From an uncultured delta proteobacterium (GTDB lineage Bacteria; Desulfobacterota; Binatia; JACPRU01), in contig CAVUWD010000005.1 of assembly GCA_963745025.1 (NCBI GenBank), forward strand, positions 160,001-224,000: 64,000 bases of DNA, in the 5' to 3' direction. The notes under the pieces were generated by a model, which was given only the letters and a program-made list of their open reading frames with translations, ran no database searches and had not been told where the DNA came from. How positions within the stretch are numbered: the stretch's first letter is position 1; each line of letters starts with the position of its first letter. Made by a program: the position numbers and the translations under genes. Of this stretch, positions 13,161 to 44,279 are shown piece by piece.

Positions 13161-13225
13161 GGCTGCAGGCTTCGGGCTGCGGGAAGGACACCGCCGCGCT
13201 CTCCCGGAGCTCGTAGCCGGCAGCC
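13161..13225. repeat. Heptamer-armed REP-like palindrome, copy 2
   Basis: GGCTGCAGGCTTCGGGCTGC...GGAGCTCGTAGCCGGCAGCC. Confidence 0.65.
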
Positions 13226-13524
13226 GGCATGTGACCCGCACCCGATCAGTTTTCGCACGACGCTCGAGGAGACGGACGCGGTCGGTTGTGGTCGGCCCGT
13301 ACTCGGGTCGATCACAATCGACCGCAACCGCGCGGAGCGCGGAAGACAATAACCCTCGACACGGTGCTGTCCTTAGGACAGCACCCTCGACACTGGTCTA
13401 TTGTCTTCCGCGCTTGCGCGCGGTGGCTGGATTTTCCGGTCGACCCGAATCCGGGCCGACGGGAAAATCCAGCGCTTCCGGATCGCGAGCGCCGGAGGCG
13501 AAGACTGAGGGCATCACAGCCGGC
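13223..13524. repeat. Multi-hairpin structured element, copy A (candidate ncRNA or MITE)
   Basis: Three long hairpins (13278-13325, 13327-13424, 13426-13473) inside imperfect terminal inverted repeats; homologous to 44097-44279. Confidence 0.8.
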
Positions 13525-13527
13525 AGC

Positions 13528-13962
13528 CTAATTCGTTTGTATCTCCACCAGCCGTCCGTCCTCGAACGTGAGCGTGCCGAGAATCGAGAGCTGGCCGTTG
13601 TAGACCCAGGTCTCGCGGCGCTGTCCGCTGTCGGTCGTGCGAGTCTCGCGTCGTTCCGGCGACCCAGCCGCTTCGAGAGTCTCTTGGTCCGACATGCCGA
13701 GACGAAGGCCGTTCAGCCGGCGTGTTTGTGCTTCGTCCTGGCCAATCAGGTCGAACACGGTCGACTTGAAATCCTGCGCCGCTTGGACGCGGGGATCGGG
13801 CCGCGGCTCGCAGCCGATCGCTGCGAGCGTGACGAGCGTCAGAAGCGTCGCTTGGAGCCGCGTAATGGATTCTCCCGGTGGGGGGCGACGAAGTCGAACC
13901 AAGATGCTCCGCACCTCTGCAGCGTGCGCGGGCAAGTTAGCCGCTGAACCTCCGGCGCGCAA
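13528..13962 (-). CDS. Hypothetical lipoprotein (SmpA/BamE-like C-terminal pattern)
   Basis: Lipobox-like LVTLAAIGC, then LRLGMS..E..G.P, ETWVY and LTFEDGRLV. Start uncertain. Confidence 0.6.
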   Translation of the reverse strand: MRAGGSAANLPAHAAEVRSILVRLRRPPPGESITRLQATLLTLVTLAAIGCEPRPDPRVQAAQDFKSTVFDLIGQDEAQTRRLNGLRLGMSDQETLEAAGSPERRETRTTDSGQRRETWVYNGQLSILGTLTFEDGRLVEIQTN

Positions 13963-14014
13963 GCAAAGTCCTCGAAGGCCAGTCGCGGCGCTGGACCGCT
14001 CCGAGCGATCTCGG

Positions 14015-16408
14015 TCATGCGCGCCCGCTTGTCTCGCGCAGCTCGTCGATGGCGGCGACGGCGAAGCGTGGCCGAATCAGATTCACCATCGGCGGAATGA
14101 AGATCAGCGCGCCGATCAGGTGGAAGGCGAGGAGCAACGTGAGCAGGAGCGCCATCTCGGCCTGGAACTTCATGGGGAAGAACACCCAGTAGATGATGCT
14201 CGCGGTCAGCGACACGCCGGTGAAGAGTACGGTCTTGCCGGTCGTGCGGATGGCGCGCGCGATCGCGTCGTCGAAGCGCCCACCGGCCTCGTCGAGCGGT
14301 ATTCCTCGACGATGCGGCTGAGGCACGTAGTAGCCGTAGTCGATGCCGATGCCGATGCCGACCGCCGCGACCGGCAGCGAGTTGATGTTCATGTCGATGC
14401 CGAGCCAGTACATGACCGCCTCCGACAGCGGCTGCGCGACCAGCGACGGCAGCATGACGATCAACGCGCCGATGACCGACACGTAGGTCAGGTAGCTGAC
14501 AGGACGAACACGACGGTCAGGATCAGCGCCAGGTTGACTCGGTAGGACCACTCGACCTCCTCGTTCACCGCGGCGAGGATGCCGAGCAGGCCGCCGGCCA
14601 GGAGATAGCGGACCGCGTCGTCGGGCTTGGCGACGTGCTGGCGATGTAGTCCTTCGCCTGCGCGATCGAGTTCTTGATCGTCTCGTGGTTGTAGTCCTGG
14701 TAGAAGACAGTGATCGTCGCGTTCGTGTAGGTCGGGTCGAAGAATCGATCGATCTCGCCACGGCGCGTGTTCGACGTGAGCAGGAAGAAGAGTTGCCCGA
14801 CGTGATCGTCGCGATCGGGCAGCATGTTCCACTTCGGATCGCCCTCGTGGAAGGCGCGGAAGATCTTCTTGAGCAGCGTCGCGGCGGTGATCGAGCCGCC
14901 AGCGCCCTGTTTCTCCATGTGCCGGGCGAATCGCTCGAGCTGCTCGAGCGCGTGCGCGTTCTTGAGCGCTTCCCTCCTTTTCCCTTCGGCGATGATCACC
15001 AGCTGCGAAGCGCCGACGAACTTCTCGTTCACTTTGCGAAAGGCGACGTTGTAGGGATGGTCGGGATAGAGCAGCGCCTCGCCGGGTGTCGTGTCTCCGA
15101 CCTTCAGCAGGCGCGAGTAGTAGAGGCCGATCGCCAGCATCACCACGAGCGACGCGGCCATGACGATGCGGCGGGAGCCGGTTGCGAGCCAGAGTGTCGC
15201 GTCGGCGAATCGATCGTAGAAACGCGAGAACAGATTCGGCGCGCTTTCCGGGGGCTGCTTGGGCGGCTTGACGAACGAGAGGATGATCGGGTGCAGCGTG
15301 ACGACGCTGACGAAGATCGAGATGATCCAGAAGCTCGCACAGCAGCGCGAGCTTCTGGATGATCGGAATGCGTGCCACGAAGAGCGTGAGGATCGCGAGC
15401 CCGTCGGCGAGCATCGACACCATCGCGGGCGCGTAGATCTCGGTGTACGACTTGACGATCGGCGGCATCCTTGTCGCGGAGCCGGTGGTACTCCTCGTGG
15501 TAGCGCTCCATCGACTGCACGGAGTGCGAGTGCGCGCGCGCGGTGATGAGGAGCGGGATCACGAGTACGAGCGGATCGAGCGACAGACCGAAGACGCCGC
15601 CGAACCCGAGGCCCCAGATCGCCGACAGGGTGCCGCAGAAGACGGGGATCACTACGCCCTGCCAGCTGCGGAACTCGAGCCAGAGGATCGCGATCATCGT
15701 CGCGACCGAGGCGACCAGCACCCACTCATCTGCGGCAGGAGCTCCATGAAGTAGGCGTAGAGGATCGGCAAACCCCGTCACGTAGATCTTGGTGTTGGCG
15801 TCCTCCTCACGGTGGACGATCTCCTGGAGCTTCTTCCACATTCCGGCGAGGTCGAAGTACTCCTCCCAGAAGCCGGCGACGATGAGCGTCGCCTTGTCGT
15901 CGTCCGAGACGAAGAGGCCGTGAACGCCCTCGGTCGTGTAGACCTTCTGCCTCAGGAAGGCGAGGTCTTCCTTCGTCCTGCGGGAGACGCGGGATAGGTG
16001 AGCGGCACGACCTTGATGCCCGAGCCCGCGGTCAGCGTGGTCTTCAGCTTCGGGTGCGTGATCGAGATCACCTGCTCGCCGTTCACGCCGGGGATGTCGT
16101 GCAGCAGGTCGAGCGTGATGCGGTCGACCTTCTGGATGGTCTCCGGCTTGGTCGAAGATGTCTCCGTCCTTCACCTCGACGATGAGCAGCACGATGTTCG
16201 CCGTGCCGAACATGTCACGGTACTTCGTGTAGAGCTGGATGTACGGATGGCCCGGCGGATAGAGATCGAAGAAGTTCGTGTAAATCGCCATGTGGTACAT
16301 CATGAAGTAGATGAAGTAGGCCGTCGTGACGCCGATGACCCCGATCACGTGCCAGCGGTGTCTCAGCAAGAAAAAGAGATACTTCTCGATGTATCGGCGC
16401 GGCAGCAT
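14015..16408 (-). CDS. MMPL/RND family transporter, broken by several frameshifts
   Basis: ORF pieces in different frames carry LDPLVLVIPLLITARAHSHSVQSMERY, AVGIGIGIDYGYY and TGKTVLFTG and join into one gene of about 790 aa. Confidence 0.82.
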
Positions 16409-16596
16409 TTAGGCCTGTCCGACTCTTATCGATTCTCCAAACGTTCGTTTCGGCTGAAAGGGGTGCGCCATATCACCGCGCTTCGCCGCGAAGCAAAGCC
16501 ACAAGCCTGCCGTGGCGGGTCAGTTTGGGGTCTGCGCCGACGGTGAAGGGGACGTTGCCGGCCTACCAACCGCGCCGGAAAACCCTGCGGACGGCG

Positions 16597-17031
16597 TCAG
16601 CGGGAGTAGATGTATTGCTTCAGGAAATGAATCTCGACCGATTGCTCGTCGCTGATCTCTTTCATCAGGTCCCCGATCGAGACCAGTCCGACGAGCCGCT
16701 CGCCCTCGACGACGGGGAGGTGCCGGCAGCGATGGCGTGTCATCTTGCTCATCGCCTCCTCTCCCGCCTCGTCGGGCTCGGTGAAGATCAGGTCCCGCGT
16801 CATCACCTGTGAGACCGCGGTCGCGGCGATGTCGTGTCCCCGCAGCACGACCCGCCGCATCAGGTCCCGTTCCGTGAAGATGCCCGCCAAACGGTTCCCA
16901 TCGAGGACGACGACGGAACCCGTGTTCGCGTGGTCCATGCGGCGCACGGCTTCGAGTACGGTATCGCCCGCTCCGACCGTGACCACGTCGCCAAGATGCT
17001 TGGCCGCCAGGATCTCGCCGATGGTACGCAT
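16597..17031 (-). CDS. CBS domain-containing protein
   Basis: GIFTERDL, VSQVMT and RHLPVVEGERLVGLVSIGDL; GGGAG RBS. Confidence 0.9.
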   Translation of the reverse strand: MRTIGEILAAKHLGDVVTVGAGDTVLEAVRRMDHANTGSVVVLDGNRLAGIFTERDLMRRVVLRGHDIAATAVSQVMTRDLIFTEPDEAGEEAMSKMTRHRCRHLPVVEGERLVGLVSIGDLMKEISDEQSVEIHFLKQYIYSR

Positions 17032-17191
17032 GAAAGGTCGCTCCCTTCCGCGCCGATGCGGACGCGACTGCAGACTAGCAAAGCCGACAGGGGAAGCCCA
17101 ACCCGGCGAGCGAGCCCTTGCCGACGCTCGGCCTCGCGTCGATGCGGATGGAGCGGACGACACTCTCGCGCTGCTCCTTCGCCTCCTGCGC

Positions 17192-19810
17192 TCAGAGCGA
17201 AGAGGGTGTCGATGGATCCGCGGTCTGAGCCGGCGTGCGCGAGCCGAGGGTGCTGCGTGGGGTGTGTGTCCAGAATTCGACCGTCGCCTCATCCAGTTGC
17301 CGTAGCGCTACGGCGGAGGACGGCTCGCCGACCGCTCGGAGCAGAGCGAGCAGCGGAGCGGGACTCGTGAAGCGATCGATGGCGGCGTGCAGCGACCGCA
17401 GCGGGAGCCCAATCAACCCGAGGCGTCGGGTCTGGCGCTCGAGGCGCCGCCACGCGACGAGCGCCTGGGGATACGGCTGAAAGCTCTCGAACTGCCGAGG
17501 CTTGGGCACGAGCCGTCCGAGCGCCGCGCCGAGCAGGTGCTTGTGCAACGTGCGAACCTCGCGCACCAACTGCTCCGTCTCTTCGACTAGCGCGTAGAGC
17601 CAGGCGGGATCTTCCTCGATGCGCTCGACCTCCCGGCGCAACGCGCGCAGCCGCTCAAGAAGCTCGTCGGCCCGCCGTAGGCGGGAGCGACCGTCGCCCC
17701 GCGCCAGCGGTCCGAGCCCCTCGAGCGCCTCGAGGAAAGAGTCCGCGACGACGATCCGCTCATCGAGACGACGCGCAAGATGCTGCCGCAAGGCGAGGCC
17801 GCCGGCCGAGCGACCGCTCTCGGCACTGCTCGGAACCAGGTCCAATCCTGCCGGATGGGCGCGATCGAAGAACAGCGCGCGGCCGTCCGATTCCGGATCG
17901 AGCAGGCATCCGCGACGGCATCGGCGCAAGCACACCTCCTCGGCGAACCAGCGACCCGCGCTGACGAGCGCTGCGGCGAATCGCGCCGCCGACTCGGGAG
18001 TCGCGGTCAGTACGGTGATTTCCGCGCAGATTCGCTGCTCGAGCCGGGTCCGGGTGCCGTCGCCACGGATGCGCCGGCGCACCACCGCCGACGGCGCGGT
18101 CTGCGGCACTTCCATCCCGGGCAAACGCGCCTGCTCGCTCGCGTCGCGCGAGAATTCTTCGACGCAAGCTCCGGCGGCGGCCATCGCCATCGCCTCCATC
18201 TGCGCGAGGGTGAGGCGGTCGCCCGGGGCGGCGCGCTCGTTCAGATTCTCGAGCTGTCGATAGAGCGCCTCGGCGAGGTCGAGAGTCGCCACGGCTCGTC
18301 GCCGCAGAGCCGTAGTCTCTTCGATCGTTCGCTTGAATCCGTCGCGTACGTCGGAGCGCGGGGCTTTCGGCCCATGAAGCAGGCTCGCCACCATCGAGCG
18401 CTCGACCATGCGGCGGGCAAAACCGCTCGCGGAGAGGCCACGCTCCTCGATCTCCCTGGCGGCGGCGAGGCTGCGGGCCGCGAGCGACGTTTCCGAACGC
18501 AGGCGATGGACCTCGCTCTGATGACGAAGCATTGCCACGAGTCGCGCCGCTGCCGCGCTTCCTGCGAGATCGCGAAGCGCCGTGCGCGCCGCGGCTCGCA
18601 GCCGGTGCGAGGTCGGTGCTCCCTCGCCGGCGAGGGACCGTGGCATGCTCAACTCCGCGCCGCCGAACGTCCACGTCGCGTAGGCGGGCGCATCGAGCAG
18701 TGTCGCGAGCTGGCGTCGGGGTGCCGGAGGAACGACCCCGGCGGGCGCCGCCGGCCTGGCCACGGCCAGCGGACGGCGAAGATACGGCATGGCGAGCGTG
18801 AACCCCTCCGGTAGCGCGCGGCCGAGCTCGATGGTGCGCCGGCGCGCGGCTTCGATGTGATGCAAGGCCGCGGGAACGTCGATCGGCGCCACCGGAATCG
18901 CCTGTCCTTCCTCGAGCGCTCGACCGATCTCTCCGGTGGTCTCGGGAGCGACGGCCGTGACGAGGTTCACTGCGCGCAGGCCGGCGTCGACGCTGATGCA
19001 GGCGAGGACGATGTCGCGAAGCTCGAGCGCTCCCGGGAACGAGATGCCGACGTTGAAGCTGCCCGTGGCGTCCGCCCCGCTCACCCAGGCCTCGAGGCTC
19101 CGCGCCGCCGGCCGAATGCCGAGGTGCTCGAGCCGGCGCAAGGCCTCGAGCACGCGGCGCCGCTCGGCGCCGTGCGCTCGAGCGAGCCAGCGGCCGAGGG
19201 CTCGCGCCCCGGCGGGCTCGCCGCGGTTGGCGACGCGCTGGATCATCAGCGTGCGGAGCGCTTCGTCGCTCTCGTGGGGAAACAAGGGGTCGAACGCCGC
19301 GCCGAGTCTCACCTGGGCGTGCGGTCGTGCGGTCGCGACCGAAATGGCGTCGAGAAGCGCTCGGCGCTCGCGTGGAGGGGATCCGCGGTAGAGCTCGACG
19401 ACCTGCGCCATACCCGTGCGATCACGCAGGCGATCGAGCAGCGTGTCGATCGACAAGAGGCTCAGGTAACGGATCTCCTCCGGCTCGAGGAGCCGTTCGA
19501 GCTGATCGGCGGCCACACCGGTCAACACCTGCGCGATCTCGGCTCGGGCGCGCTCGGAGCGTTCTGCATCGCGAAAGGCATTGGTCAGCGTCTGCGTATC
19601 AGCGGGGGTGGCGATCTCGTGGAGGGCGGCAGCAGCCATGCCGTGGACGGACGGCTCGCCCCCGAGCAGGTCGAGAAGGAGCGGCACGGCCGTCTCGCGT
19701 GCCGCACGAAGCGGCTCGACCCGATAGCGGAATTCCGCTTCCGACATCGGCATTCGATCCGCGAGATCGGAGAGTAGGCGGCGAATGTCCGGTGCGCAGT
19801 CGTCGCTCAT
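17192..19810 (-). CDS. Large hypothetical protein (helical/HEAT-like N-terminus)
   Basis: 872-codon ORF filling the gap between recognisable genes. No family recognised. Confidence 0.65.
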   Translation of the reverse strand: MSDDCAPDIRRLLSDLADRMPMSEAEFRYRVEPLRAARETAVPLLLDLLGGEPSVHGMAAAALHEIATPADTQTLTNAFRDAERSERARAEIAQVLTGVAADQLERLLEPEEIRYLSLLSIDTLLDRLRDRTGMAQVVELYRGSPPRERRALLDAISVATARPHAQVRLGAAFDPLFPHESDEALRTLMIQRVANRGEPAGARALGRWLARAHGAERRRVLEALRRLEHLGIRPAARSLEAWVSGADATGSFNVGISFPGALELRDIVLACISVDAGLRAVNLVTAVAPETTGEIGRALEEGQAIPVAPIDVPAALHHIEAARRRTIELGRALPEGFTLAMPYLRRPLAVARPAAPAGVVPPAPRRQLATLLDAPAYATWTFGGAELSMPRSLAGEGAPTSHRLRAAARTALRDLAGSAAAARLVAMLRHQSEVHRLRSETSLAARSLAAAREIEERGLSASGFARRMVERSMVASLLHGPKAPRSDVRDGFKRTIEETTALRRRAVATLDLAEALYRQLENLNERAAPGDRLTLAQMEAMAMAAAGACVEEFSRDASEQARLPGMEVPQTAPSAVVRRRIRGDGTRTRLEQRICAEITVLTATPESAARFAAALVSAGRWFAEEVCLRRCRRGCLLDPESDGRALFFDRAHPAGLDLVPSSAESGRSAGGLALRQHLARRLDERIVVADSFLEALEGLGPLARGDGRSRLRRADELLERLRALRREVERIEEDPAWLYALVEETEQLVREVRTLHKHLLGAALGRLVPKPRQFESFQPYPQALVAWRRLERQTRRLGLIGLPLRSLHAAIDRFTSPAPLLALLRAVGEPSSAVALRQLDEATVEFWTHTPRSTLGSRTPAQTADPSTPSSL

Positions 19811-19930
19811 GCCGCGCTTGTTATCGAGACCAAACCACCACGTTGTCAAATCCAGCCGCCGGGGACGAAGACGATGGTCAAGTCCGTCGACCGTGGTCGG
19901 CGTCGGTGCCATCTGCTACGTAGCGATCCG

Positions 19931-21121
19931 ATGCCAGGTGATCGATTGAGGTTGGGCTTCGTCGTGCCGCGCTATGGCCCGGAGATCGTCGGCGGAGCCG
20001 AGACGCTGGCGAGGGGTTTTGCGGAGAAGCTTCCGGTGGACCGCTTCGAGGTCGAGGTGCTGACGACGTGCGCGCGCGATCATCACACCTGGACCAACGT
20101 ACTGCCGAGCGGGGAGGAACGCAGCGGCGCGGTGACGGTGCGGCGCTTCGCCGTGTCGGCGCGCGACGTGGGGCGGTTTCTGGCGATCCAACAGCGAATG
20201 TCGGAAGGCTTTCCCCTCGAGCTCGAGGAGGAGCTCGCTTGGGCCGAGGGCAGCGTCAACTCGGAGGATCTCTACGACTACCTCCACGCCGAGCGCGAGC
20301 GCTTCTCCGCGCTGATCTTCCTCCCCTACCTGTTCGGCACGACGCTGCTCGGTACGCAAATCGATCCGGCGCGCTCCGTGCTGATCCCCTGTCTGCACGA
20401 CGAGCCGTTCGCCTACTTGAGGGTCGTCCGGCATCTGTTTCGCAGCGTGCGGGCCGTGCTGTTCAACAGCGCCCCCGAGCGTTCGCTCGCCCGGCGGCTC
20501 TATGGAGGCCCGAGGCAGGCGCCCGTGGTCGGCTTCGGCTTCGACCTCGTCGAGACGGCGAAAGAGGCGAGTCGCAGCTTTCGTTCGCGCTACGGGATCG
20601 ATGGGGACTACCTTCTGTATTTCGGACGGAAGGAGGGCGGAAAGAATCTGCCGTTGCTCCTCGAGTGCTTCCGCGCCTGCCGCGATGCGGGTCGGGGTTT
20701 GTCGCTCGTCGTCGCCGGCGACGGTTCCGTCGATGCGTCCGCCGGGATCGACGGGCTCGTCGACCTGCCTCGTTTGAGCGAAGACGAGAAGAACGCCGCC
20801 TGCGCGGGCGCGCTCGCCGTCTGCCAACCGTCGGTCAACGAATCCTTCTCGATCGTGCTGATGGAAGCGTGGCTTCAGGAGACACCGGCGCTCGTGAACG
20901 CACGCTGCCCGGTCACCTGCCATCACGTTGCGCTTTCGAACGGCGGGCTCTATTTCAACGACACCACGGAGTTCGCCGCCGAAGTCGAGTACCTGCGCGT
21001 GCACCGCGACGATCGCCGCGAGCTGGGTCGGCAGGGACGGCGCTACGTCGTCGAAAACTACTCGTGGCCGGCAGTGCTCGGGCGGTTCGAGCGCGCGCTC
21101 CACGCGGTTCTGGAAAGCTGA
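19931..21121 (+). CDS. Glycosyltransferase family 4
   Basis: VVPRYG..GGAE, PCLHDEP, YFGRKEGGKN and PSVNESFSIVLMEAW. Confidence 0.9.
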   Translation: MPGDRLRLGFVVPRYGPEIVGGAETLARGFAEKLPVDRFEVEVLTTCARDHHTWTNVLPSGEERSGAVTVRRFAVSARDVGRFLAIQQRMSEGFPLELEEELAWAEGSVNSEDLYDYLHAERERFSALIFLPYLFGTTLLGTQIDPARSVLIPCLHDEPFAYLRVVRHLFRSVRAVLFNSAPERSLARRLYGGPRQAPVVGFGFDLVETAKEASRSFRSRYGIDGDYLLYFGRKEGGKNLPLLLECFRACRDAGRGLSLVVAGDGSVDASAGIDGLVDLPRLSEDEKNAACAGALAVCQPSVNESFSIVLMEAWLQETPALVNARCPVTCHHVALSNGGLYFNDTTEFAAEVEYLRVHRDDRRELGRQGRRYVVENYSWPAVLGRFERALHAVLES

Positions 21122-21126
21122 GACGG

Positions 21127-21525
21127 ATGGACGCCACGGGAGGACCCAGCTTTCGGATTGCCGGAGAGATCGGTCGCGGTGTGGTCGAGAAGGTGCGTGC
21201 CAGGCTCGCCGACCGGTTGGCGCGTGGCATTCTCGATCGCGACGAGATCGCGCGTGTCTCGACGATGCCTCTTCGTACCTTCGCCGGCGGCGACGCGGCC
21301 TCGGAGATCTTCCGCCGCTGTTGCGTGACCTGGGAGGTCGATCGAGTGCCCGCCCTCACCTCGCACCGACCGCTGATCGGTCCGCTGCTCGTCGCGATCA
21401 AGCGCGTCGCTCGGCGCCTGCTCCGATTTCAGACCGAGGCGCAGTTCTCCCGCCAGCGGGATTTCAACTGGAACTTGTTGCTGGTGCTCCGGGAGCTTCT
21501 CGAGAGGGATGGGCGGCGGGGCTGA
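21127..21525 (+). CDS. Hypothetical protein in glycosyltransferase cluster
   Basis: TSHRPLIGPLLVAIKRVARRLLRF..QRDFN pattern; sits tightly between GT genes. Confidence 0.7.
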   Translation: MDATGGPSFRIAGEIGRGVVEKVRARLADRLARGILDRDEIARVSTMPLRTFAGGDAASEIFRRCCVTWEVDRVPALTSHRPLIGPLLVAIKRVARRLLRFQTEAQFSRQRDFNWNLLLVLRELLERDGRRG

Positions 21526-24980: not shown

Positions 24981-24982
24981 GA

Positions 24983-25051: not shown

Positions 25052-25067
25052 TTTTCGGAGGTGCATC

Positions 25068-32621: not shown

Positions 32622-32750
32622 CGGATGGACGCACACGGGAGCAGTGGTGGATCGCCAGGCGAGCGCCACGGACCCCGTCCGGCGGCTCCCTGTTCCTCGC
32701 CAGGTCGATGTGATAGGGACGCCGGAATCTCAACGGGAGGTCACACGAAC

Positions 32751-33008: not shown

Positions 33009-33009
33009 T

Positions 33010-33094
33010 GGCGACCGGCTACCGGCGACCGGCTGCCGCGAAAGATTCACGACGTCTTTTCCGGAAGCCAAAGCCGGAAGCTAGCCGGTAGCCG
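33010..33094. repeat. Heptamer-armed REP-like palindrome, copy 5
   Basis: GGCGACCGGCTACCGGCGACCGGCTGCC..AAAGA..GTCTTTT..CCGGAAGCC..GCCGGTAGCCG. Confidence 0.7.
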
Positions 33095-33102
33095 ACCCCC
33101 GG

Positions 33103-34736: not shown

Positions 34737-34775
34737 AACGCTAGGATTGCCTTTGGCCGACGACGATCGGGAATG

Positions 34776-34822
34776 GGCTTTGGCATCCCCAACGAGCCTT
34801 TGCCGAAAGCCGAAAGCCGAGC
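34776..34822. repeat. REP-like palindrome, GGCTTT variant
   Basis: GGCTTTGGCA...TGCCGAAAGCCGAAAGCCG. Confidence 0.5.
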
Positions 34823-34826
34823 GCAG

Positions 34827-36020
34827 ATGGATTTCACCCAGGTCCTCGAGGGAATTCGCGGAGGCGAGATGGTCGTGGTCGTGGACGACCGCGACGGCAG
34901 CGGTGAGCTTTGCCTCGCAGCCTCCCGTGTGACCCCGGAGGCGATCAATTTCATGGCGACCCATGCGCGCGGCCTGGTGTGCTTGGTGCTCACCGAGGAG
35001 AAGCTCCGCGCGCTCGGCATTCCGCTCGTGGGGGGCGAGGGCAGCGCGCGACGGACCTTCGGGGTGTCCATCGAGGCCCGGCGCGGGGTTTCGACCGGGA
35101 TCTCGGCGGCGGACCGTGCGACTACCATCCGCGCCGCGGTCGCCGAAGGCGCAAGCGCCGATGATCTGGTCATGCCAGGACACGTGCTTCCGGTACAAGT
35201 GCGGCGTGGTGGGGTACTCTCGCGCCCGCAGATTCCCGAGGCGGCCGTCGACCTCGTGCGTCTGGCGGGCATGCCTCCCATGGCAGTCACGTGCGCGATT
35301 CTTCGCGACGACGGTGCGATCGCGCACGCGGCGGACCTCGAGGCGTTCGCCGAGCGGTACGATCTGTCGCGCGTCGGCATCGAATCGCTGGTGCGCTATC
35401 GTCTGCGATTCGAGACCCTCGTCACTCGCGTCGCCTGCTCGTGGATCCAGACTCCAGTCGGCGAGTTCGAGGCGATCGCCTACCGCAGTGAGGTGGACCC
35501 ATACGAGCACGTGGCCCTGGTGCGGGGCGACGTCGCCGGAGACGACCCCGTCATCGTGCGCATCCATTCGCAATGCCTGACCGGCGACGTCTTCGGATCG
35601 CTGCGCTGCGACTGCGGCGATCAGCTGCAGCAGGCGTTCGTCCAGATCGCCCGTGAGGATCGAGGGGTTCTCGTCTACATGCGCCAGGAGGGACGAGGCA
35701 TCGGGCTCGGCAACAAGATCCGTGCCTACGCGCTCCAGGACAAGGGCCGCGACACCGTGCAGGCGAATCTCGATCTCGGCTTCAAGGAGGATCTGCGCGA
35801 CTACGGCATCGCCGCGCAGATCCTCCGCGAGCTCGGCGTCTCCACGGTGCGCTTGCTCACCAACAACCCGCGGAAGATCGCCGGGCTGCAGCGCTATGGG
35901 GTCAACGTGATCGAGCGGATCGCGCTCGAATCGACGCCGCACGACGACAACATCGAGTATCTGCGCACCAAGCGGGAGAAGCTCGGTCACTTCTTCAACA
36001 CGCTGCCGCTGATTACGTAG
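34827..36020 (+). CDS. ribBA: RibBA fusion: DHBP synthase-like domain (degenerate) + GTP cyclohydrolase II
   Basis: RIHSQCLTGDVFGSLRCDC, RQEGRGIGL and LLTNNPRK are intact. The RibB part keeps INFMATHARGLVC and TGISAADRA but has altered catalytic motifs. Confidence 0.88.
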   Translation: MDFTQVLEGIRGGEMVVVVDDRDGSGELCLAASRVTPEAINFMATHARGLVCLVLTEEKLRALGIPLVGGEGSARRTFGVSIEARRGVSTGISAADRATTIRAAVAEGASADDLVMPGHVLPVQVRRGGVLSRPQIPEAAVDLVRLAGMPPMAVTCAILRDDGAIAHAADLEAFAERYDLSRVGIESLVRYRLRFETLVTRVACSWIQTPVGEFEAIAYRSEVDPYEHVALVRGDVAGDDPVIVRIHSQCLTGDVFGSLRCDCGDQLQQAFVQIAREDRGVLVYMRQEGRGIGLGNKIRAYALQDKGRDTVQANLDLGFKEDLRDYGIAAQILRELGVSTVRLLTNNPRKIAGLQRYGVNVIERIALESTPHDDNIEYLRTKREKLGHFFNTLPLIT

Positions 36021-36031
36021 GCGGGACGGTC

Positions 36032-36511
36032 ATGCCCCGTGAGATCAACGGCTCGCTCGACGGCACCGGGCTTCGGATCGGCGTCGTCGTGGCCCGCTTC
36101 AACGCGTACATCACCGAGCGCCTGCTCGCGGGCGCGCTGCGGGCGCTCACCGACGCCGGGGTCATCGACGAAGACGTGACGATCGTTCGCGTGCCCGGAG
36201 CCTTCGAGGTGCCGCTCGCGGCTCGCGAGCTCGCCGCCAGCGGGGAGGCCGACGCAGTCGTGTGTCTGGCCGCGGTGATCCGCGGCGAGACGCCTCACTT
36301 CGAGTTCGTCGCGCAGTCGGCCGCCGACGGTGTCGGCACGACGATGCTGGATCTCGGTGTGCCGATTGCGTTCGGCGTGTTGACGACGAACACTGTGGAG
36401 CAGGCGGTGGAACGCTCCAACGAGGGCCAGGGAAACAAAGGAGCCGAAGCCGTACAGACGGCGATCGAGATGGTCCGCGTGCAGCGTGCGATCCGGCGAG
36501 GGCGGCACTGA
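36032..36511 (+). CDS. ribH: 6,7-dimethyl-8-ribityllumazine synthase
   Basis: VARFN, VPGAFEVP, VIRGETPHF and NKGAEA. Confidence 0.95.
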   Translation: MPREINGSLDGTGLRIGVVVARFNAYITERLLAGALRALTDAGVIDEDVTIVRVPGAFEVPLAARELAASGEADAVVCLAAVIRGETPHFEFVAQSAADGVGTTMLDLGVPIAFGVLTTNTVEQAVERSNEGQGNKGAEAVQTAIEMVRVQRAIRRGRH

Positions 36512-36957
36512 TGGGAGCCCGGCGACAGGGTCGCGAGATCGCGCTGCAGGCGCTCTACCGAATCGAGCTCACGGGCGACGCCTCGCCCGAGGCGCTCGAG
36601 CGGCTCTGGCAGCACTTCGAAGCGCCGATCGAAGCCCGCGGGTTCGCGCTCGAGCTCATCGACGGCGTGCTCGCCGAGCGCGAGGCGATCGACCGAATGC
36701 TCGCCGACGCGGCGGAGCATTGGCGCCTCGAACGGCTCTCTCGCGTCGACCTGAACGTGCTGCGCATTGCCGCCTACGAGCTCCTCCAGCACGACGAACA
36801 CGTTTTCACGAGCGTGGTGATCGACGAGGCGATCGAGATTGCGCGCCGCTTCGGAGGCGAGGAATCGTCGCGGTTCGTGAACGGCATCCTCGACGAGATC
36901 GCCGGCCGGCTCGGCGTGCGCGAGCGCCGTGACCCGTCGCCCGCCGTCAAGGAATGA
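36511..36957 (+). CDS. nusB: Transcription antitermination factor NusB
   Basis: RRQGREIALQALY, WRLERL..VD, VVIDEAIEIA and FVNGILD. Confidence 0.93.
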   Translation: MGARRQGREIALQALYRIELTGDASPEALERLWQHFEAPIEARGFALELIDGVLAEREAIDRMLADAAEHWRLERLSRVDLNVLRIAAYELLQHDEHVFTSVVIDEAIEIARRFGGEESSRFVNGILDEIAGRLGVRERRDPSPAVKE

Positions 36958-37016
36958 CCGCGCGGTTCGCCCTCGCAGACGACCCTGCAGCAGGCGCGAC
37001 ATAGCGAGACCCGTTC

Positions 37017-39542
37017 ATGCCCTACGACCACAAGACCGCCGAGCCCAAGTGGCAGTCCCGCTGGGAGGCGGAGCACGCCTTCGCGACCGACACCGACGCG
37101 TCGAAGCCGAAGATCTACCTTCTCGACATGTTCCCCTATCCGTCGGGTGCGGGGCTTCACGTCGGCCATTGCGAAGGCTACACGGCCACCGACGTCCTCG
37201 CTCGCTACAAGCGGGCGAAGGGCTTCCGCGTGCTCCACCCGATGGGCTGGGATGCCTTTGGTCTTCCGGCGGAGCTCTACGCGGTGCGCACCGGCATCCA
37301 CCCAGCGAAGACCACCGCGGCGGCGATTGCAACCTTCAAGCGGCAGATCCGCTCGCTCGGCTTCTCCTACGACTGGTCGCGCGAGATCGATACGACCGAT
37401 CCTCTGTACTATCGCTGGACGCAGTGGATTTTCCTGAAGCTCTTCGAGCGCGGCCTCGCATACCAGGACGTGGTGCCGATCAACTGGTGCCCGAATGACC
37501 GCACCGGCCTCGCCAACGAGGAGGTGAAGCAGGGGCGCTGCGAGCGCTGTGGCACGCTCGTCGAGAAGCGAAATCTCCGCCAGTGGATGCTGCGCATCAC
37601 GGCGTACGCCGACCGCTTGCTCGCCGACCTCGAGGGATTGGATTGGCCCGAGGGCACGCTCACCATGCAGCGCGAATGGATCGGTCGGAGCGAGGGCGCC
37701 GACATCACTTTTCTCGTGGCCGAGGGCTCGCCCGGGGCCGGCGAGCCGATCGTCGTGTTCACCACGCGCCCCGACACGCTTTACGGCGCGACCTACGTGG
37801 TCCTCGCCCCAGAACATCCGCTTGTCGGGAAGGTCACGACGGAGGCGCAGCGCACGGCCGTCGCCGCATACGTGGAGGCGGCCCGGGACAAGAGCGAGCG
37901 CGAGCGGGTCGAGCAGGTGAAGACCAAGACGGGCGTTGCGACCGGGGCGTTCGCCATCAATCCCGTGAACGGCGAGCGGGTGCCGATCTGGATCGCCGAT
38001 TATGTGCTGTGGGGCTACGGCACCGGCGCGATCATGGCCGTGCCGGCGCACGACCAGCGCGACTTCGAGTTCGCCCAGGCCTTCCGCCTGCCGATCGTGC
38101 AGGTGATCGCGCCGAGGGACGGCTCGCCCGTTTCCGAGGATCGCGCCTTCCTCGACGCCGGCCCTGGCGTCGTGATGGTGAGCTCCGGACCACACACCGG
38201 CCTCGATTCAGACGCCGGTAAGAAGGCGGTCATCGAATCGCTGGCGACCAAAGCGCTCGCGCGCCCGAAGGTCGGTTACAAGCTCCGCGACTGGATCTTC
38301 TCGCGCCAGCGCTACTGGGGCGAGCCCATCCCGATCGTGCACTGCGAGCGCTGCGGGGTCGTTCCGGTGCCGGAGAAGGAGCTCCCGGTTTTGCTGCCGG
38401 CCGTCGAGCGCTTCGAGCCTTCGGGCACCGGGGAGAGCCCGCTCGCCACGATCGAGGAGTGGATCCGCACGCGCGTGCCCGAAGTGCGATGGCGAGGCTC
38501 GAGCGCGAGACCAACACGATGCCCCAGTGGGCGGGCTCGTGCTGGTACTACCTGCGCTTCCTGGACCCGAGGAATGACCAGCGCCGCGTGGGATCCGAGG
38601 ATCGAGCGGCAGTGGATGCCGGTCGACCTCTACGTCGGCGGCGCCGAGCACGCGGTGCTGCATCTGCTCTACGCGCGTTTCTGGCACAAGGTGCTCTTCG
38701 ATCGCGGGCCACGTGTCGACGAAGGAGCCGTTCGCGAAGCTGCGCCACCAGGGGATGGTGCTCGCCTACGCGTATCGCGACGCGCCAGGACCGCTGGCAG
38801 GGCTACGAGGAGATCGAGTTTCGCGGCGCCGAGGTGCACTTGAAGGCCACCGGCGAGAAGCTCGTCGCGTCGGTCGAGAAGATGTCGAAGTCGCGGCTGA
38901 ACGTGCATCAATCCCGACGACGTGGTCGCCGAGCACGGCGCCGACGTGCTGCGTCTCTACGAGATGTTCATGGGCGACTTCGAGCAGCCGAAGCCCTGGG
39001 ACACGCGCGCGATCATCGGGCTCGTGCGCTTCGTGCACAACGTGTGGCGCCTGGTCGAAGAGCCGAAGTGTGTCCCGGGCGACCCGCATCTTCGTCTGCG
39101 CCACAAGACCATTCGCGCCGTGGGCGAGCGCATCGAGGCGCTCAAGTTCAACACCGCGATCGCGGCGCTGATGGAGTACGTCGGCGAGCTCCAATCGAAG
39201 GGGGCGAGCCGCGCCGATCGAGAGACACTGCTCCGTCTCGCGGCGCCGTTCGCGCCTCACGTGGCCGAGGAGGGTTGGCATCATCTCGGGCATGCCACGC
39301 TCCTCTGCAAGGAGCCCTGGCCGGACTACGACCCGGCACTGACGATCGACGCGACCGTGACGATCGCGGTTCAGGTCTCGGGCAAGATGCGCGGCACCGT
39401 CGAGACCGAGCGCGGCGCCGACGAAGCGACGGTACGGGCCGCAGCCGAGAAGCTCGCCACCGTGACGCGCGCCCTCGCGGGGAGGCGGATCGTGAAGACC
39501 ATCTTCGTCCCCGCCAAGCTATTGAACCTCGTAGTCGATTGA
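37017..39542 (+). CDS. leuS: Leucine--tRNA ligase (several frameshifts between about 38480 and 38930)
   Basis: [65 protein letters not shown] and QVSGKMR are spread across frames. Confidence 0.92.
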
Positions 39543-39561
39543 TGGAGAGTAGGGCGCGACG

Positions 39562-40164
39562 ATGAAGCGAGAATCGACGCGAACGAGAGGCCTTTTCGCC
39601 GTGGCTCTGGCGTTCGGGTCGCTCGCGGGCTGCGGCTATCAATTCGCTGGCACCGGCAACCGGCTGCCGCCGGAGATCCGCGCGATCAGCCTCGGGCCGA
39701 TCCAGAATGCGACGCGCGAGGTCGGCATCGAGAAGCTGCTGATCGAATCTCTCGAGGACGAGGTGGCCAGCCACGGCCGGCTGAAGGTCGTGCCGATCGG
39801 GGAGGGCGATGCGCAGCTGACCGGCGTGGTCCGCTACTATGTTTCGCGGCCCGTCGGCTACAACTCCAATGACGAGGCGACGCTATATCAAGCCAGTGTC
39901 GCGGTGGACCTGGCTCTCCGCCGGCGGGACAATGGAAAGCTGCTCTGGAAGACGGTTGGCCAGCGCGGGACGCAGGAGTACAGCGCCGTGCCCGGCACGG
40001 TTGTCACCAGCTCGTCGCAGTTCCAGCGGAGCGCCGTGAACGTCAAGTCGATCCCTCAGTTCACCGACATCCAGCTGTCCGAGAGCACGCGGCGCGAGGC
40101 CAACGAGCGGCTGATCGAGCAACTCTCGCGCGACCTCTACAATGTGATGATGGAGGACTTTTAG
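39562..40164 (+). CDS. lptE: LPS assembly lipoprotein LptE
   Basis: Lipobox LAGCGY; conserved leuS-lptE-holA gene order. Confidence 0.8.
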
Positions 40165-40230
40165 CGCTCGGCGTCCGGCTTTCGGCAAAGACGCATTGAG
40201 CCTCTGCCGAGAGCCAAAGACCGACAGCCG
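40164..40230. repeat. REP-like palindrome, GGCTTTCGGC variant
   Basis: CGGCGTCCGGCTTTCGGCAAAGAC..GCCTCTGCCGAGAGCCAAAGACCGACAGCCG. Confidence 0.6.
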
Positions 40231-40239
40231 ATCGCCTCG

Positions 40240-40268
40240 TTCACCGAGCGCGCGCGCCCTGATACACT
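40240..40268 (+). promoter_or_regulatory. Putative extended -10 promoter giving a leaderless holA mRNA
   Basis: TTCACC-N17-TACACT with TG at the extended position; the GTG start lies 7 nt downstream and has no SD. Confidence 0.4.
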
Positions 40269-40275
40269 TCGCCGC

Positions 40276-41280
40276 GTGGACTCCCAGGTGTTCCGCGCGG
40301 CGCTCCGCCAGAAGAAGATCCTTCCCGCCTATCTCTTCACGGGAGCCCAGGACCTGCTGAAAGCAGAAGCGCTCGAGGAGCTCCGCCGTGCGGCGGGTGG
40401 CGAGCGTGCAACGGTCCGGAGCTTCTTCGGCGGCGAGAGCGAGGCGGCGAGGAAGATCCTCGAGGCGAAGCAGAATCTTTCGCTCCTCGATCCGGTGGCG
40501 GCGATCGTCGTGCGGCAGGCGGCGAAGCTTCCCCGTGCCGAAGCCGAGGCGCTCGCCGCGAGCCTCTCCCCCGACGGGCCGCCGGTCGTCTTTTGGGACC
40601 AGAGCCTCGACAAGCGACAAAAGCTCTACGCGGAGATCGCGCGCGCGGGAGGGGAAGTGGAGTTCGAGGCGCCCCGGGGGGAAGCGCTCGCCGCCTGGGT
40701 GCGACGCGAGAGCGAGCGCCTCGGCCATCGGCTCGATCCCGCAGTCGCCGGCGAGCTCATCGAGCTCGTTGGCGACGATCTGTTGCGCCTGCGCTCGACG
40801 CTCGAGCGGCTCTCGCTCGCAGTCGGCAAGGGCGCGGCGATCGACGAGGAGAGCGTGACGGAGCACGTGGCGTCGTCGCGAATGCACGCGATCTACGAGC
40901 TGCAGGATGCCCTGTCCGCCAAGCATGGGACGAAGGCGGTCGGCCTCTTCCGCCAGCTCGTCGACGAGGGAAGCGAGACGCCGGCGCTCGTCGGGGCGCT
41001 GGTCGCGCAGATTCGGCGGCTGCTGCTCGCCCGCGAGGCGTCGAGCTCGGCGAACCTCGCCGCACTCCTCGGCGTGGCGCCGCATCGTGTGAGGTACGTC
41101 GTCGAGCATTCACGGCGATTCTCCGCCGCCCGCCTTCGACGGGCGATCGAGGACCTCGCCGACCTCGACGTAGCGAGCAAGACCGGGCGCGGAGATGCGG
41201 TCGCCGCGCTCGAGGAATGGCTGATCGCGCTCTGCGCGCCCGAGCGCAAGCCGGCAAGCTCCCATGTGGGAAGACGTTGA
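40276..41280 (+). CDS. holA: DNA polymerase III subunit delta
   Basis: PAYLFTGAQDLL, LSLL, VGDDLLRL..LERL and DVASKTG; position after lptE. Confidence 0.85.
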   Translation: MDSQVFRAALRQKKILPAYLFTGAQDLLKAEALEELRRAAGGERATVRSFFGGESEAARKILEAKQNLSLLDPVAAIVVRQAAKLPRAEAEALAASLSPDGPPVVFWDQSLDKRQKLYAEIARAGGEVEFEAPRGEALAAWVRRESERLGHRLDPAVAGELIELVGDDLLRLRSTLERLSLAVGKGAAIDEESVTEHVASSRMHAIYELQDALSAKHGTKAVGLFRQLVDEGSETPALVGALVAQIRRLLLAREASSSANLAALLGVAPHRVRYVVEHSRRFSAARLRRAIEDLADLDVASKTGRGDAVAALEEWLIALCAPERKPASSHVGRR

Positions 41281-42697
41281 ACGGTGCTTCCGGGAGAACG
41301 CTCCCGCGGTAGAACACTGCTCGCTTCGTCTGGTGGAAGAGCGAGAAGAGCACCTCTCGGTGCGCCGCGGCGTGTTGGAGACGGTTTCGAGTTCGCTCGA
41401 CGTCGGGGCCATGGTCTCCGTGGTCGACGACGGCGGCATGGGTTATGCCGCGACCTCGGACCTCACCGCCTCGGGCTTGCGGCATGCCGTCGATCGAGCC
41501 CTCGCCTGGGCACGAGAGACGCGCGGCCGCGGTCTCTTCGATCCAGCCAGGCTCATTCGGGCTCCGCGGGTCGGCGAGTATGCGAGCGTCGTGCGGATTC
41601 CCTGGGACTCCGTTTCCCTCGGCGACAAGATCGACCTCTTGCGCATGCAGAGCGAGCGACTCAAGTGCGACCGCCGGATCGAGGACTGGGAGGCGGGTCT
41701 CTGGTTCACCGCGAAGGAGACTCTTCTCGTGAGCGCCGGCGGCGGTTGCCTCCGCCAGCGCTTCCAGCACCTCCTACCGACGCTCTCGGCGAGCGCGAAC
41801 GAAGGCGCCGAGACCCAGACGCGCACGTTCGGCGGTCACGCCTATTGCCGCCAGGGCGGCTTCGAGGTGCTCGAAGAAACGGGATTCGGCGAGGCGCCCG
41901 CGCGGATCGCCGCCGAGGCGCTCGAGCTCCTGTACGCGCGGAACTGCCCGAGCGGCATGATGGATCTTCTGCTCGCGCCGGACCAGATGATCCTCCAGAT
42001 CCACGAATCGATCGGGCATCCGCTGGAGCTCGACCGCATTCTCGGCGACGAGCGGAACTATGCCGGGCGAAGCTTCGTCACGCTCGACATGTTCGGCCAC
42101 TATCGCTACGGCTCGGAGCTCCTGAACGTCACGTTCGATCCCACTCGGCGCGGGGAGTTGGCGAGCTACGCGTTCGACGACGAAGGCGATCCGGCGACGA
42201 GGGAAGAGATCATTCGCGAGGGCATTCTCCTCCGCCCGCTCGGCGGCCGGGTGTCGCAGGTGCGTTCTGGCATTCGGGGGGTTGCCAGCGCGCGGGCATC
42301 GAGCTGGAATCGGCCGCCGATCGACCGGATGGCGAATCTCAACCTCGAGGCCGGCCGGTCGACCCTCGACGAGATGATCGCCGGCATCGAGCGCGGCGTG
42401 TACATGAAGACGAATTGCTCGTGGTCGATCGACGACTCGCGCAACAAGTTCCAGTTCGGCTGCGAGTGGGCGCGGCTCATCGAGAACGGGCGCCTCACCG
42501 CGGTCGTCAAGAACCCCAACTACCGTGGCATCTCCGCGACGTTCTGGCGAGGCTTGAAGGCCGTCGGCGACGCCGACACCGTCGACGTGCTCGGCACACC
42601 CTATTGCGGCAAAGGGGAGCCGAATCAGGCGATCGCCGTGGGGCACGCCTCGCCCCCGTGCGTGTTTGCCGACGTCGACGTGTTCGGCGGCGCGTGA
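41264..42697 (+). CDS. tldD: TldD metalloprotease
   Basis: HESIGHPLELDR, FDDEG, PIDRMANL and CGKGEPNQ. Confidence 0.92.
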   Translation: MWEDVERCFRENAPAVEHCSLRLVEEREEHLSVRRGVLETVSSSLDVGAMVSVVDDGGMGYAATSDLTASGLRHAVDRALAWARETRGRGLFDPARLIRAPRVGEYASVVRIPWDSVSLGDKIDLLRMQSERLKCDRRIEDWEAGLWFTAKETLLVSAGGGCLRQRFQHLLPTLSASANEGAETQTRTFGGHAYCRQGGFEVLEETGFGEAPARIAAEALELLYARNCPSGMMDLLLAPDQMILQIHESIGHPLELDRILGDERNYAGRSFVTLDMFGHYRYGSELLNVTFDPTRRGELASYAFDDEGDPATREEIIREGILLRPLGGRVSQVRSGIRGVASARASSWNRPPIDRMANLNLEAGRSTLDEMIAGIERGVYMKTNCSWSIDDSRNKFQFGCEWARLIENGRLTAVVKNPNYRGISATFWRGLKAVGDADTVDVLGTPYCGKGEPNQAIAVGHASPPCVFADVDVFGGA

Positions 42698-42701
42698 CGT
42701 G

Positions 42702-44024
42702 ATGGAAAGCTATTTCCACGACGTCGCCGCGATCGTCACGAGCCTGGTTCGAGGGCAAGAGATCCACCTCTCGAGCTTCTACGGCGAGGATTCGGACTTC
42801 GTGCGGATGAGTCAGGGACGGGTGCGGCAAGCGGGCGCGGTGGCGATGCGCTCGCTGACGGTCGACCTCATCCGCGGCCGGCGGCATGCGTCAGGAAGCG
42901 TATCGCTCTCGGGTGACCTCAAGCTCGATCGCATGCGCATCGCTCGGCTCGTCGAGGATCTCCGCGAGCGCTCGGCGGTGGTGCCCGAGGATCCGTTCCT
43001 CCTCTACGCCACCGAGCCGCGCTCGAGCGCGCGCCGCTCCGAGAACCGATTGCCGGGCGGCGGGGAGGCGCTCGAGGAGATTCAGTGCGCGGCGCGGGGC
43101 CGTGATCTCGTCGGAATCTACGCGGCCGGAGACATCTACTGCGGCTTTGCCAACACGCTCGGCCAGCGCAACTGGTACGCCAACTCGAGCTACAACCTCG
43201 ACTGGAGCTTCGTGCGCTCCGCCGACCGGGCGGTGACCGCGAACTATGCCGGGTTCGAGTGGAAGCGGGAGGAGCTCCAGCGGAAGGTCGACGCTGCACT
43301 CGCGGAGCTCGAGCTGCTGTCGCGCCCGGCGCGCACGATCCCGCCGGGACGATATCGCGTCTACCTCGCTCCGGCTGCGCTCAGCGACTTTCTCGGCCTT
43401 CTCGGCTGGGGTGGATTCGGTCTGCGCGCGCACCGCAGCAAGACGACGCCGCTGCTGCGCATGATCGAGCAGGGCCAGCGCCTGCATCCGAGCGTGCGGC
43501 TCGTCGAGAACACGTGCGCGGGCCTCGCCCCCGATTTCCAGGAGGAGGGATTTCTGCGTCCCGACCAGGTGCCGCTGATCGAGGGTGGAGCGTACCGGGA
43601 GTGCCTCGCTTCGCCGCGCTCGGCGGCCGAGTATGGAGTGCCGACGAACGGCGCCTTCGCGGCGGAAATGCCGCAGTCTCTCGAGGTCGGCGCCGGCAGC
43701 GTCCCTCGCGCGGACGTGCTTCGGCAGCTCGGCAAGGGAATCTACATCGGCAACGTCTGGTATCTGAACTACTCGGACCGTGTCGCGTGTCGCACGACCG
43801 GTATGACTCGGTTCGCGACCTTCTGGGTCGAGAACGGGGCCTTGCAAGCTCCGCTCGACGTCATGCGCTTCGACGAGACGATTTATCGGATGCTCGGCGA
43901 GAACCTCGTCGGATTGACGGCCGAGCGCGAGTGGATCCTCGATCCGAGCACGTACTCGCGGCGCTCGACCGCGACCACGTACGTGCCCGGGGCGCTGATC
44001 GAGGACTTCCGGTTGACGTTGTAA
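42702..44024 (+). CDS. TldE/PmbA family partner subunit
   Basis: Follows tldD, lacks HExxxH; FQEEG and TGMTRFATFWVENG..MRF. Confidence 0.85.
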   Translation: MESYFHDVAAIVTSLVRGQEIHLSSFYGEDSDFVRMSQGRVRQAGAVAMRSLTVDLIRGRRHASGSVSLSGDLKLDRMRIARLVEDLRERSAVVPEDPFLLYATEPRSSARRSENRLPGGGEALEEIQCAARGRDLVGIYAAGDIYCGFANTLGQRNWYANSSYNLDWSFVRSADRAVTANYAGFEWKREELQRKVDAALAELELLSRPARTIPPGRYRVYLAPAALSDFLGLLGWGGFGLRAHRSKTTPLLRMIEQGQRLHPSVRLVENTCAGLAPDFQEEGFLRPDQVPLIEGGAYRECLASPRSAAEYGVPTNGAFAAEMPQSLEVGAGSVPRADVLRQLGKGIYIGNVWYLNYSDRVACRTTGMTRFATFWVENGALQAPLDVMRFDETIYRMLGENLVGLTAEREWILDPSTYSRRSTATTYVPGALIEDFRLTL

Positions 44025-44096
44025 CGTCGCGGGGGTCGTGGGTCATCGTGGCGATCGCCGCCGCGGTGGAAGGGGGCGTTGCCCCTCTAGTAAGGC

Positions 44097-44279
44097 CTCA
44101 GTTTTTGCCTCGAATACTTGTGGAGGACAACCGCGCGGAGCGCGGCAGGCAGTAACCCGCGAGTTGGTGCATTGCCTTCCGCGCTTGCGCGCGGTGGCTG
44201 GATTCTCCGGTTGACCCGAGTACGGGCCGACCGGAGAATCCAGCGCTTCGGAATCTCGAGCGCTCGAGGCAACACTGAG
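44097..44279. repeat. Multi-hairpin structured element, copy B
   Basis: Terminal inverted repeats CTCAGTTTTTGCCTCGA / TCGAGGCAACACTGAG; hairpins 44130-44195 and 44197-44244 are homologous to copy A. Confidence 0.8.

Follow-up and report, generated by a model that had tools for sequence, protein, structure and literature searches.

The window analysed here, 64,000 nucleotides from the genome of an uncultured delta proteobacterium (Bacteria; Desulfobacterota; Binatia; JACPRU01; GenBank assembly GCA_963745025.1, contig CAVUWD010000005.1, positions 160,001 to 224,000 of the forward strand), carries two intergenic copies, A and B, of a hairpin-rich repeat. We read this repeat, with a probability of roughly 0.85, as a family of miniature inverted-repeat transposable elements, or MITEs, that has ends of the type of IS66 insertion sequences (IS), an IS66-family partner in the same genome and covarying internal hairpins. 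A first-pass annotation of the window had left two possibilities for it, an undescribed structured RNA and a non-autonomous mobile element, MITE-like or REPIN-like, whose enzyme is encoded elsewhere. As far as a MITE-like element is concerned, the second is supported: inverted ends, 8-9-bp duplications, dispersed copies and a matching transposase-bearing element are all present in the genome. The lead towards an undescribed structured RNA resolves into a miniature transposon, and the family, apart from internal hairpins that are unusually well preserved, is a rather ordinary mobile element and does not represent a new RNA gene.

Copy number and anatomy of the repeat family

How many copies does the genome have? 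The first-pass annotation counted two, and only two lie in the window, yet the genome (5.65 Mb in 20 contigs; positions outside the window are given below as contig and coordinate) holds many more. Copy A as a query against this genome gave 101 match rows, and a BLASTN search with it at E<=1e-5 gave 84 merged places. With an nhmmer profile made of 21 copies, 222 matches were obtained, which merge into 91 places on 14 of the 20 contigs, 38 of them near full length. The element is 197-290 nt long and carries no gene, and its borders are sharp when copies are aligned together with their flanks. Members of a short subfamily, about 245-255 nt in length, extend from GTAACGCCTCAGTCTTCGCC to GGCCAAGACTGAGGCATTAC, which make up a 20-nt terminal inverted repeat, the right end being GTAATGCCTCAGTCTTGGCC when it is read inwards. 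Nine copies, 85-97% alike, form the long subfamily, copy A among them, and copy B is a member of a subfamily without the first hairpin (H1).

The interior is arranged in the order of H1 (48 nt), a GC-rich centre, and another large hairpin, H3 (48 nt). The core of H1 is the reverse complement of that of H3, the two hairpins cross-match on opposite strands, and copy A aligns with the reverse complement of itself over 263 nt at 73% identity. Because of these inverted cores and this self-match, the element is a near-palindrome with local sub-palindromes. Insertions and deletions of 1, 2, 10 and 31 nt distinguish the copies, which argues against a conserved reading frame in the element. The 31-nt insertion of copy A, which resembles the product of a minor template switch or slippage within the element, is found in one further copy only (C16:85415); therefore, the variant was copied after the insertion arose.

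Two copies adjoin at C11:414169-414566, where the flank CTGATTCCGT is repeated, and this arrangement suggests that one element inserted into an older copy or next to it. Apart from the family itself, short elements that have the same GTAAGGCCTCAG-type ends and other subterminal sequence are found at C11:460346-460504, C16:565985, C11:480963, C18:2464 and C19:140536. These are probably sister MITE families of the same transposase.

Terminal inverted repeats and target-site duplications

The terminal inverted repeats of the family are about 20 nt long and of the GTAAYGCCTCAGTCTTCGCC type, with variants. Target-site duplications were scored as the longest exact repeat common to 36-nt windows at the two ends of a copy, and mismatched pairs of left and right ends served as controls. 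An exact flanking repeat of at least 8 nt was present in 19 of the 38 near-full copies, as against 26 of 1406 control pairs. When the long subfamily was inspected by eye, eight of its nine copies had an 8-9-bp flanking repeat, in some cases with one mismatch.

A probable IS66-family partner in the same genome

An end-motif scan of the genome, for which a tight pattern was used since a 14-nt end pattern with three mismatches was too loose (1094 matches), revealed three elements of 1882 bp with perfect 19-nt inverted ends, GTAAGGCCTCAGTCTCCGT. The one at C19:80230-82111 is flanked by an 8-bp duplication, AACGATCG. At C6:484414-488185, two identical 1882-bp copies stand head to tail, 8 bp apart (CTTCTGGA), and the same 8 bp, CTTCTGGA, come again after the second copy; this pair arose either as a tandem dimer or by insertion next to a copy. 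The main open reading frame (ORF) of the element encodes 468 aa and scores over the curated cut-offs of DDE_Tnp_IS66 (PF03050; 131.3 bits, cut-off 23.1, E 6e-38), of zf-IS66 (PF13005; 29.4 bits, cut-off 27.3) and of the NCBIfam model transpos_IS66 (NF033517; 218.5 bits, cut-off 180). The proteins of the three copies are 100% identical, and no further full-length homologue of this transposase was found in the genome. An upstream ORF of 105 aa reaches 27.0 bits for DUF6788, just under the cut-off of 27.2. Thus, the element has a single transposase ORF and a small upstream ORF, not the three-ORF organisation of tnpA, tnpB and tnpC.

Sites that differ from the 19-nt end of this IS by at most four substitutions comprise six IS ends, 37 inward-reading MITE ends and 30 sites elsewhere, whereas a shuffled-genome control gave nine sites in total. 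About 20 of the 30 sites elsewhere are copies of a second, unrelated repeat, which is described below. Because matching ends and the same 8-bp duplication occur in one genome, the MITE family was most likely moved in trans by the co-resident IS66-family transposase, as far as sequence comparison can tell. An HUH or RAYT enzyme, an IS110 transposase or a reverse transcriptase, to which the first-pass annotation had pointed as possible movers, is not what the ends indicate; they match an IS66-family DDE transposase instead. In the course of events that we envisage, this transposase, supplied in trans, would bind the MITE ends, cut the element and insert it elsewhere, and 8-9 bp of the target would be duplicated. 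It is to be noted that the mechanism of IS66-type transposases is poorly known.

The second repeat is about 85-90 nt long and has 29 copies with sharp borders, which are found on contigs C3, C4, C6, C8, C11, C15, C16, C17 and C19 (for example, at C17:47543, 53902, 55383, 61141 and 63181). Its middle resembles an IS66 end. The copies are clustered and co-oriented with a spacing of 1.5-15 kb, and unrelated single genes lie between them, such as those for DUF808, Meth_synt_2, aldo/keto reductase, GSDH and O-methyltransferase. This arrangement is reminiscent of cassette arrays of the integron type, in which the repeats would be attC-like sites. ORFs for tyrosine recombinases exist nearby (e.g., C17:44916-45446), the best of which scores 73.9 bits while the integron-integrase cut-off is 265, and the second repeat has no match in Rfam.

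Folding and covariation of the hairpins

Both window copies fold much more stably than shuffled sequences: copy A at -198.5 kcal/mol (z -16.9) and copy B at -116.3 kcal/mol (z -8.8), with none of 200 shuffles as low in either case. The RNAalifold consensus of the 38 near-full copies consists of H1, two short local hairpins and H3. In this alignment 96.7% of the cells are paired, and changes on both sides are seen at 27 of 54 pairs. Column shuffles gave 9.8 +/- 1.9 such pairs, none of 500 reaching 27, although the copies are related by descent and this control overstates the number of independent covariation events; partners slid by 1-3 columns gave 3-11. Covariation is strong in the two large hairpins: both sides have changed at 9 of 22 pairs in H1, where 98.3% of the cells are paired, and at 15 of 21 pairs in H3. 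For the local central hairpins, the counts are 2 of 6 and 1 of 5 pairs. In a set from two species, with 5 copies of this genome and 12 of a genus-mate, paired cells make up 98.5%, and covariation is seen at 26 of 51 pairs.

The paired differences between copies A and B on which the first-pass annotation had built its argument, AAGAC/GTCTT in A against AGGC/GCCT in B and TTTT/AAAA against TTCT/AGAA, are real. Its statement that structure is conserved over sequence holds for H1 and H3, which covary in two species; the long central hairpin that it had drawn does not share this covariation. Over the 38 copies, that hairpin covaries at only 1 of 22 pairs, namely at the AAGAC/AGGC position, where the copies are split into GC in 12 and AU in 10, and the remaining changes in the centre disrupt it and preserve the two local hairpins. 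H1 has a conserved G.T in 31 of 38 copies, which has its mirror image in an A.C of H3 (31 of 38 copies); therefore, neither strand is favoured.

Genomic placement and taxonomic spread

Only about 22% of the genome is uncalled, yet 67 of the 91 places have an overlap of below 30% with called ORFs. This figure, like the other intergenic statistics, rests on a rough custom ORF filter under which 78% of the genome is coding. These places lie between tandem (35), divergent (16) and convergent (16) genes, near the share of intergenic bases of each type. No orientation bias relative to co-directional neighbours was seen: 17 places have the same orientation and 18 the opposite one, and near-full copies are split 9 against 5. 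An apparent bias of 15 against 4 under a filter of GC content at third codon positions (GC3) >= 0.80, which called 58% of the genome coding, disappeared with the better filter.

The genus-mate retains the flanking gene pairs of both window copies at 79-88% identity, and the element is missing at either site. The spacers there measure 225 nt against 372 nt here at the site of copy A, and 78 nt against 381 nt at that of copy B. When a DNA query was run against 41 genomes, matches were obtained in three, that is, in the genome of the window, in the genus-mate (26 rows, 71-89% identity) and, weakly, in a member of a sister genus; there was none in 33 genomes of other families of the class. None of 400 further sampled genomes of the phylum matched, two candidates being scored per genome. 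The exact 19-nt hairpin core was found in 15 stretches among 185,579 species genomes. Four of them are real copies, all in one record of a metagenome-assembled genome, and the other 11 have no profile match or a marginal one. The spread of the family is thus narrow, covering the genus with faint traces in one sister genus.

Alternative explanations

Could the repeats be genes of structured RNA or cis-elements, such as small RNAs, terminators or mRNA-stabilising sequences, that the host keeps and whose mobility is incidental or past? Their strong folding and the covariation of two hairpins in two species speak for this possibility, and prokaryotic MITE transcripts, which are generally described as folding into stable stem-loops, have been suggested to act as regulators (PMC10969869, in the sections at hand). 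We nevertheless consider it very unlikely. An Rfam scan of the whole window gave no match at gathering thresholds, and three representative copies searched at E<=1 gave only microRNA-hairpin noise of 12-24 bits against cut-offs of 50-162, the best score being 24.3 bits against a cut-off of 90. The repeats show neither a preferred orientation nor a preference for gene ends, no T-run follows the hairpins of copies A and B, and the mirrored G.T and A.C favour neither strand. The element is absent from both window sites in the genus-mate, and target duplications and inverted ends are foreign to RNA genes. Sequencing runs weigh neither for nor against transcription: contigs from two DNA and two RNA runs, compared with 12700-14000 of the window, covered mostly 12876-12963, and the RNA contigs did not reach the element. 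A DNA contig from a wetland, 210 nt long and free of differences, spans the right end of copy A into the flank. Another thought is that the repeats are palindromes of the type of repetitive extragenic palindromes (REPs) or of the REP doublets forming hairpins (REPINs), moved by a REP-associated tyrosine transposase (RAYT; HUH, IS200/IS605-like) that acts on single-stranded hairpins. The repeats do have GC-rich palindromic hairpins in inverted pairs, H1 and H3, and the genome has two Y1_Tnp genes over the Pfam cut-off (42.4 and 39.8 bits). Even so, this explanation, and with it the REPIN-like nature suggested at first, is hardly credible to us, as 98 of the 99 matches of the hairpin core fall within the 91 MITE places and the hairpin is therefore not free-standing. 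No copy stands beside either Y1_Tnp gene, the nearest being about 5 kb off on C11 with none near C13:188500. Moreover, the family has terminal inverted repeats of 20 nt and duplicates 8-9 bp of its target, and REPINs are not known to do either. The two Y1_Tnp (IS200/IS605-type) domains, at C13:188500-188823 and C11:419866-420189, lie in unusually long frames of 342 and 398 aa.

If the repeats are MITEs, why do their hairpins remain paired? In the course that we propose, hairpins would be kept since foldable master copies would be those still spreading, and folding might take place as single-stranded or cruciform DNA that joins the two ends, or as a harmless stable RNA. A stronger version, in which the hairpins are a functional substrate of transposition, because IS66-type transposases favour extruded hairpins or cruciforms or because a host factor binds the hairpins, or else have a strand-independent RNA function tolerated or used by the host, seems rather improbable to us. 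It might also be that the paired changes are unselected in a MITE, and that they come from template switching, from mismatch correction in a palindrome or from a few palindromic master copies. We regard this as a possibility to be taken seriously, though not the one that we would favour. The whole element is near-palindromic, and many paired changes are subfamily-wide, as in four copies with a wholly different H3 stem; therefore, independent events must be far fewer than the 98 covarying cells counted. On the other hand, intermediates with a single wobble or mismatch are observed, AAAGT in six copies of the long subfamily and ATCCTCC in two, and they fit stepwise compensation. The mismatch conserved in 31 of 38 copies persists, although frequent homogenisation predicts its erasure, and divergence is free in the unpaired spacers and loops, whereas the stems remain 94-98% paired. 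These intermediates and the uncorrected mismatch weigh mildly against unselected upkeep.

Several observations count against our interpretation of the family as MITEs with an IS66-family mover and selected hairpins. Half of the near-full copies (the other 19 of 38) lack an exact duplication that reaches 8 nt, and in copy B no flanking target duplication can be recognised. Ends are degenerate or altered in copy B and on the left side of the long subfamily, whose right end is normal and whose left end reads TGTGA, about seven extra bases and CCGATCAGTTTTCGC. The ends of the main subfamily match the IS at about 15-17 of 19 bases only, and the interior of the MITE is unrelated to the IS, the ends alone being common to both; therefore, the MITE is not a simple deletion derivative of the IS. 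In the genus-mate, the IS66-type transposases are only 31-32% identical to that of the partner, no matching ends beyond chance were found beside its IS66-like genes or elsewhere in its 82%-complete genome, and its spacers at the two window sites have diverged too far for an empty site to be defined to the base. Template switching in replication can restore perfect palindromes without selection. To these points belong also the limits given above for the shuffle control and for the ORF filter.

The two copies in the window

Copy A is a 288-nt MITE of the long subfamily at 13230-13517 (+), with borders taken from the nine-copy alignment with flanks, and its profile match is C5:173245-173512. Copy B is a 197-nt MITE of the H1-less subfamily at 44090-44286 (+); its left end is C5:204090, and profile positions 94-252 match C5:204128-204284. 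The first-pass annotation had already located both stretches in the same orientation and recognised their inverted ends, and alignment agrees with this, while its boundaries needed correction to the coordinates given here. The core at 13327-13505 of copy A and that at 44130-44275 of copy B are near-identical; they differ by the 31-nt insertion in A and by a small number of paired changes.

Copy A is flanked by an 8-bp target-site duplication, AGCCGGCA, to which no strand is assigned and which is read directly at 13222-13229 on the left and recurs at 13518-13525 on the right, as seen in the window sequence and in the alignment of copies. The atypical left end (13230-13258, +) consists of TGTGA, the extra CCCGCAC and then CCGATCAGTTTTCGC, so that about seven bases follow GTGA in excess of the right end. 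Hairpin H1 (13278-13325, +), which is missing from copy B, has a 22-bp stem with the conserved G.T wobble and a 4-nt loop. The central region (13327-13424, +) includes the two short local hairpins, CCGCGC-GGAG-GCGCGG and CGCGC-TTG-GCGCG, and a variable stem, AAGAC.../...GTCTT, by which they are joined. Within it, the insertion private to copy A (13352-13393, +) is an 11-nt direct duplication, ACCCTCGACAC, around a 20-nt palindrome, by which 31 nt are added. Hairpin H3 (13426-13473, +) has a stem of about 22 bp and a 4-nt loop, as the first-pass annotation had described it in both copies. The right terminal inverted repeat (13497-13517, -) reads GTGATGCCCTCAGTCTTCGCC inwards with one extra C; the end-motif list shows this end through sister copies of copy A, and its own end was read from the window sequence.

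In copy B, the left terminal inverted repeat, GTAAGGCCTCAGTTTTTGC (44090-44108, +), has four substitutions relative to the 19-nt end of the IS66-family element. It is followed by the central region (44130-44195, +), placed by alignment, and by hairpin H3 (44197-44244, +), placed by alignment and folding. The right terminal inverted repeat (44268-44286, -) reads GTATCCGCTCAGTGTTGCC inwards and is degenerate.

Copy A has an Fe-S assembly protein gene on its 5' side (12601-13158, +) and a convergent DUF2845 gene on its 3' side (13528-13962, -). The neighbours of copy B are a PmbA/TldD-type gene on the 5' side (42666-44024, +) and a methyltransferase gene on the 3' side (44419-45168, +). Positions 12876-12963 of the Fe-S assembly gene are 90-95% alike in many metagenome contigs from bogs, wetlands and sediments; this likeness is that of a conserved domain, and not a sign of the presence of the organism.

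What the family can be used for

The family shows that a repeat has expanded recently in this uncultured lineage from soil, with about 90 copies in one species and fewer, older ones in a genus-mate. It offers more than 50 natural hairpin variants, with which the importance of MITE hairpins to transposition can be examined. Annotators who look for RNA genes in the lineage should mask the elements first.

Comparison with known systems

In the parts of PMC9769881, PMC3189936 and PMC12888890 at hand, no link between MITEs and IS66 is made, and the 2024 review of prokaryotic MITEs (PMC10969869) does not mention IS66 in its accessible sections. The clear association seen here between a MITE family and an IS66-family partner has no prior description in the literature searched, as far as its main texts go, and supplements of papers might list some IS66-linked families.

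Canonical IS66 elements have three ORFs, tnpA, tnpB and tnpC. Unlike these, the partner has no accessory ORFs like tnpA or tnpB, and the MITE itself has no transposase. The nearest group of the partner in ISfinder is presumably that of the ISBst12-like members with a single transposase. IS66 elements are described as having 20-30-bp inverted repeats that start with GTAAGCG and 8-bp direct repeats (PMC11946415, in the portion at hand). The partner resembles them in its IS66 transposase, in its ends starting with GTAAG and in its 8-bp duplication, and the ends and duplications of the MITE agree with these. It differs from that description in that its ends start with GTAAGGC instead of GTAAGCG, which leaves 5 of the 7 motif bases. 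Its perfect repeat is 19 nt long.

With REPs and REPINs, the family shares GC-rich extragenic palindromes in inverted pairs and paired changes in the stems. It differs from them in its terminal inverted repeats and 8-9-bp duplications, in the confinement of the hairpin to a larger element, and in the absence of copies flanking the Y1_Tnp genes.

Well-known examples of prokaryotic MITEs are Correia/NEMIS, RUP and MITEAba12. How prokaryotic MITEs derive from IS elements or are mobilised by them has been reviewed (PMC10969869; PMC3184786). The available sections of the former name as features of MITEs their inverted ends, direct repeats that become less clear as copies grow older, folds predicted to be stable, and movement in trans through a related IS. 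The present family is likewise small and transposase-free, with inverted ends, fading direct repeats, many intergenic copies and stable folds, and an IS with matching ends resides in the same genome. In contrast to typical MITEs, which are AT-rich according to the same sections of PMC10969869, it is GC-rich in a host of about 66% GC, and its interior bears no relation to the partner IS. It differs also in its modular build of H1, centre and H3, modules that subfamilies lose or gain, and in its hairpins, which covary across subfamilies and species.

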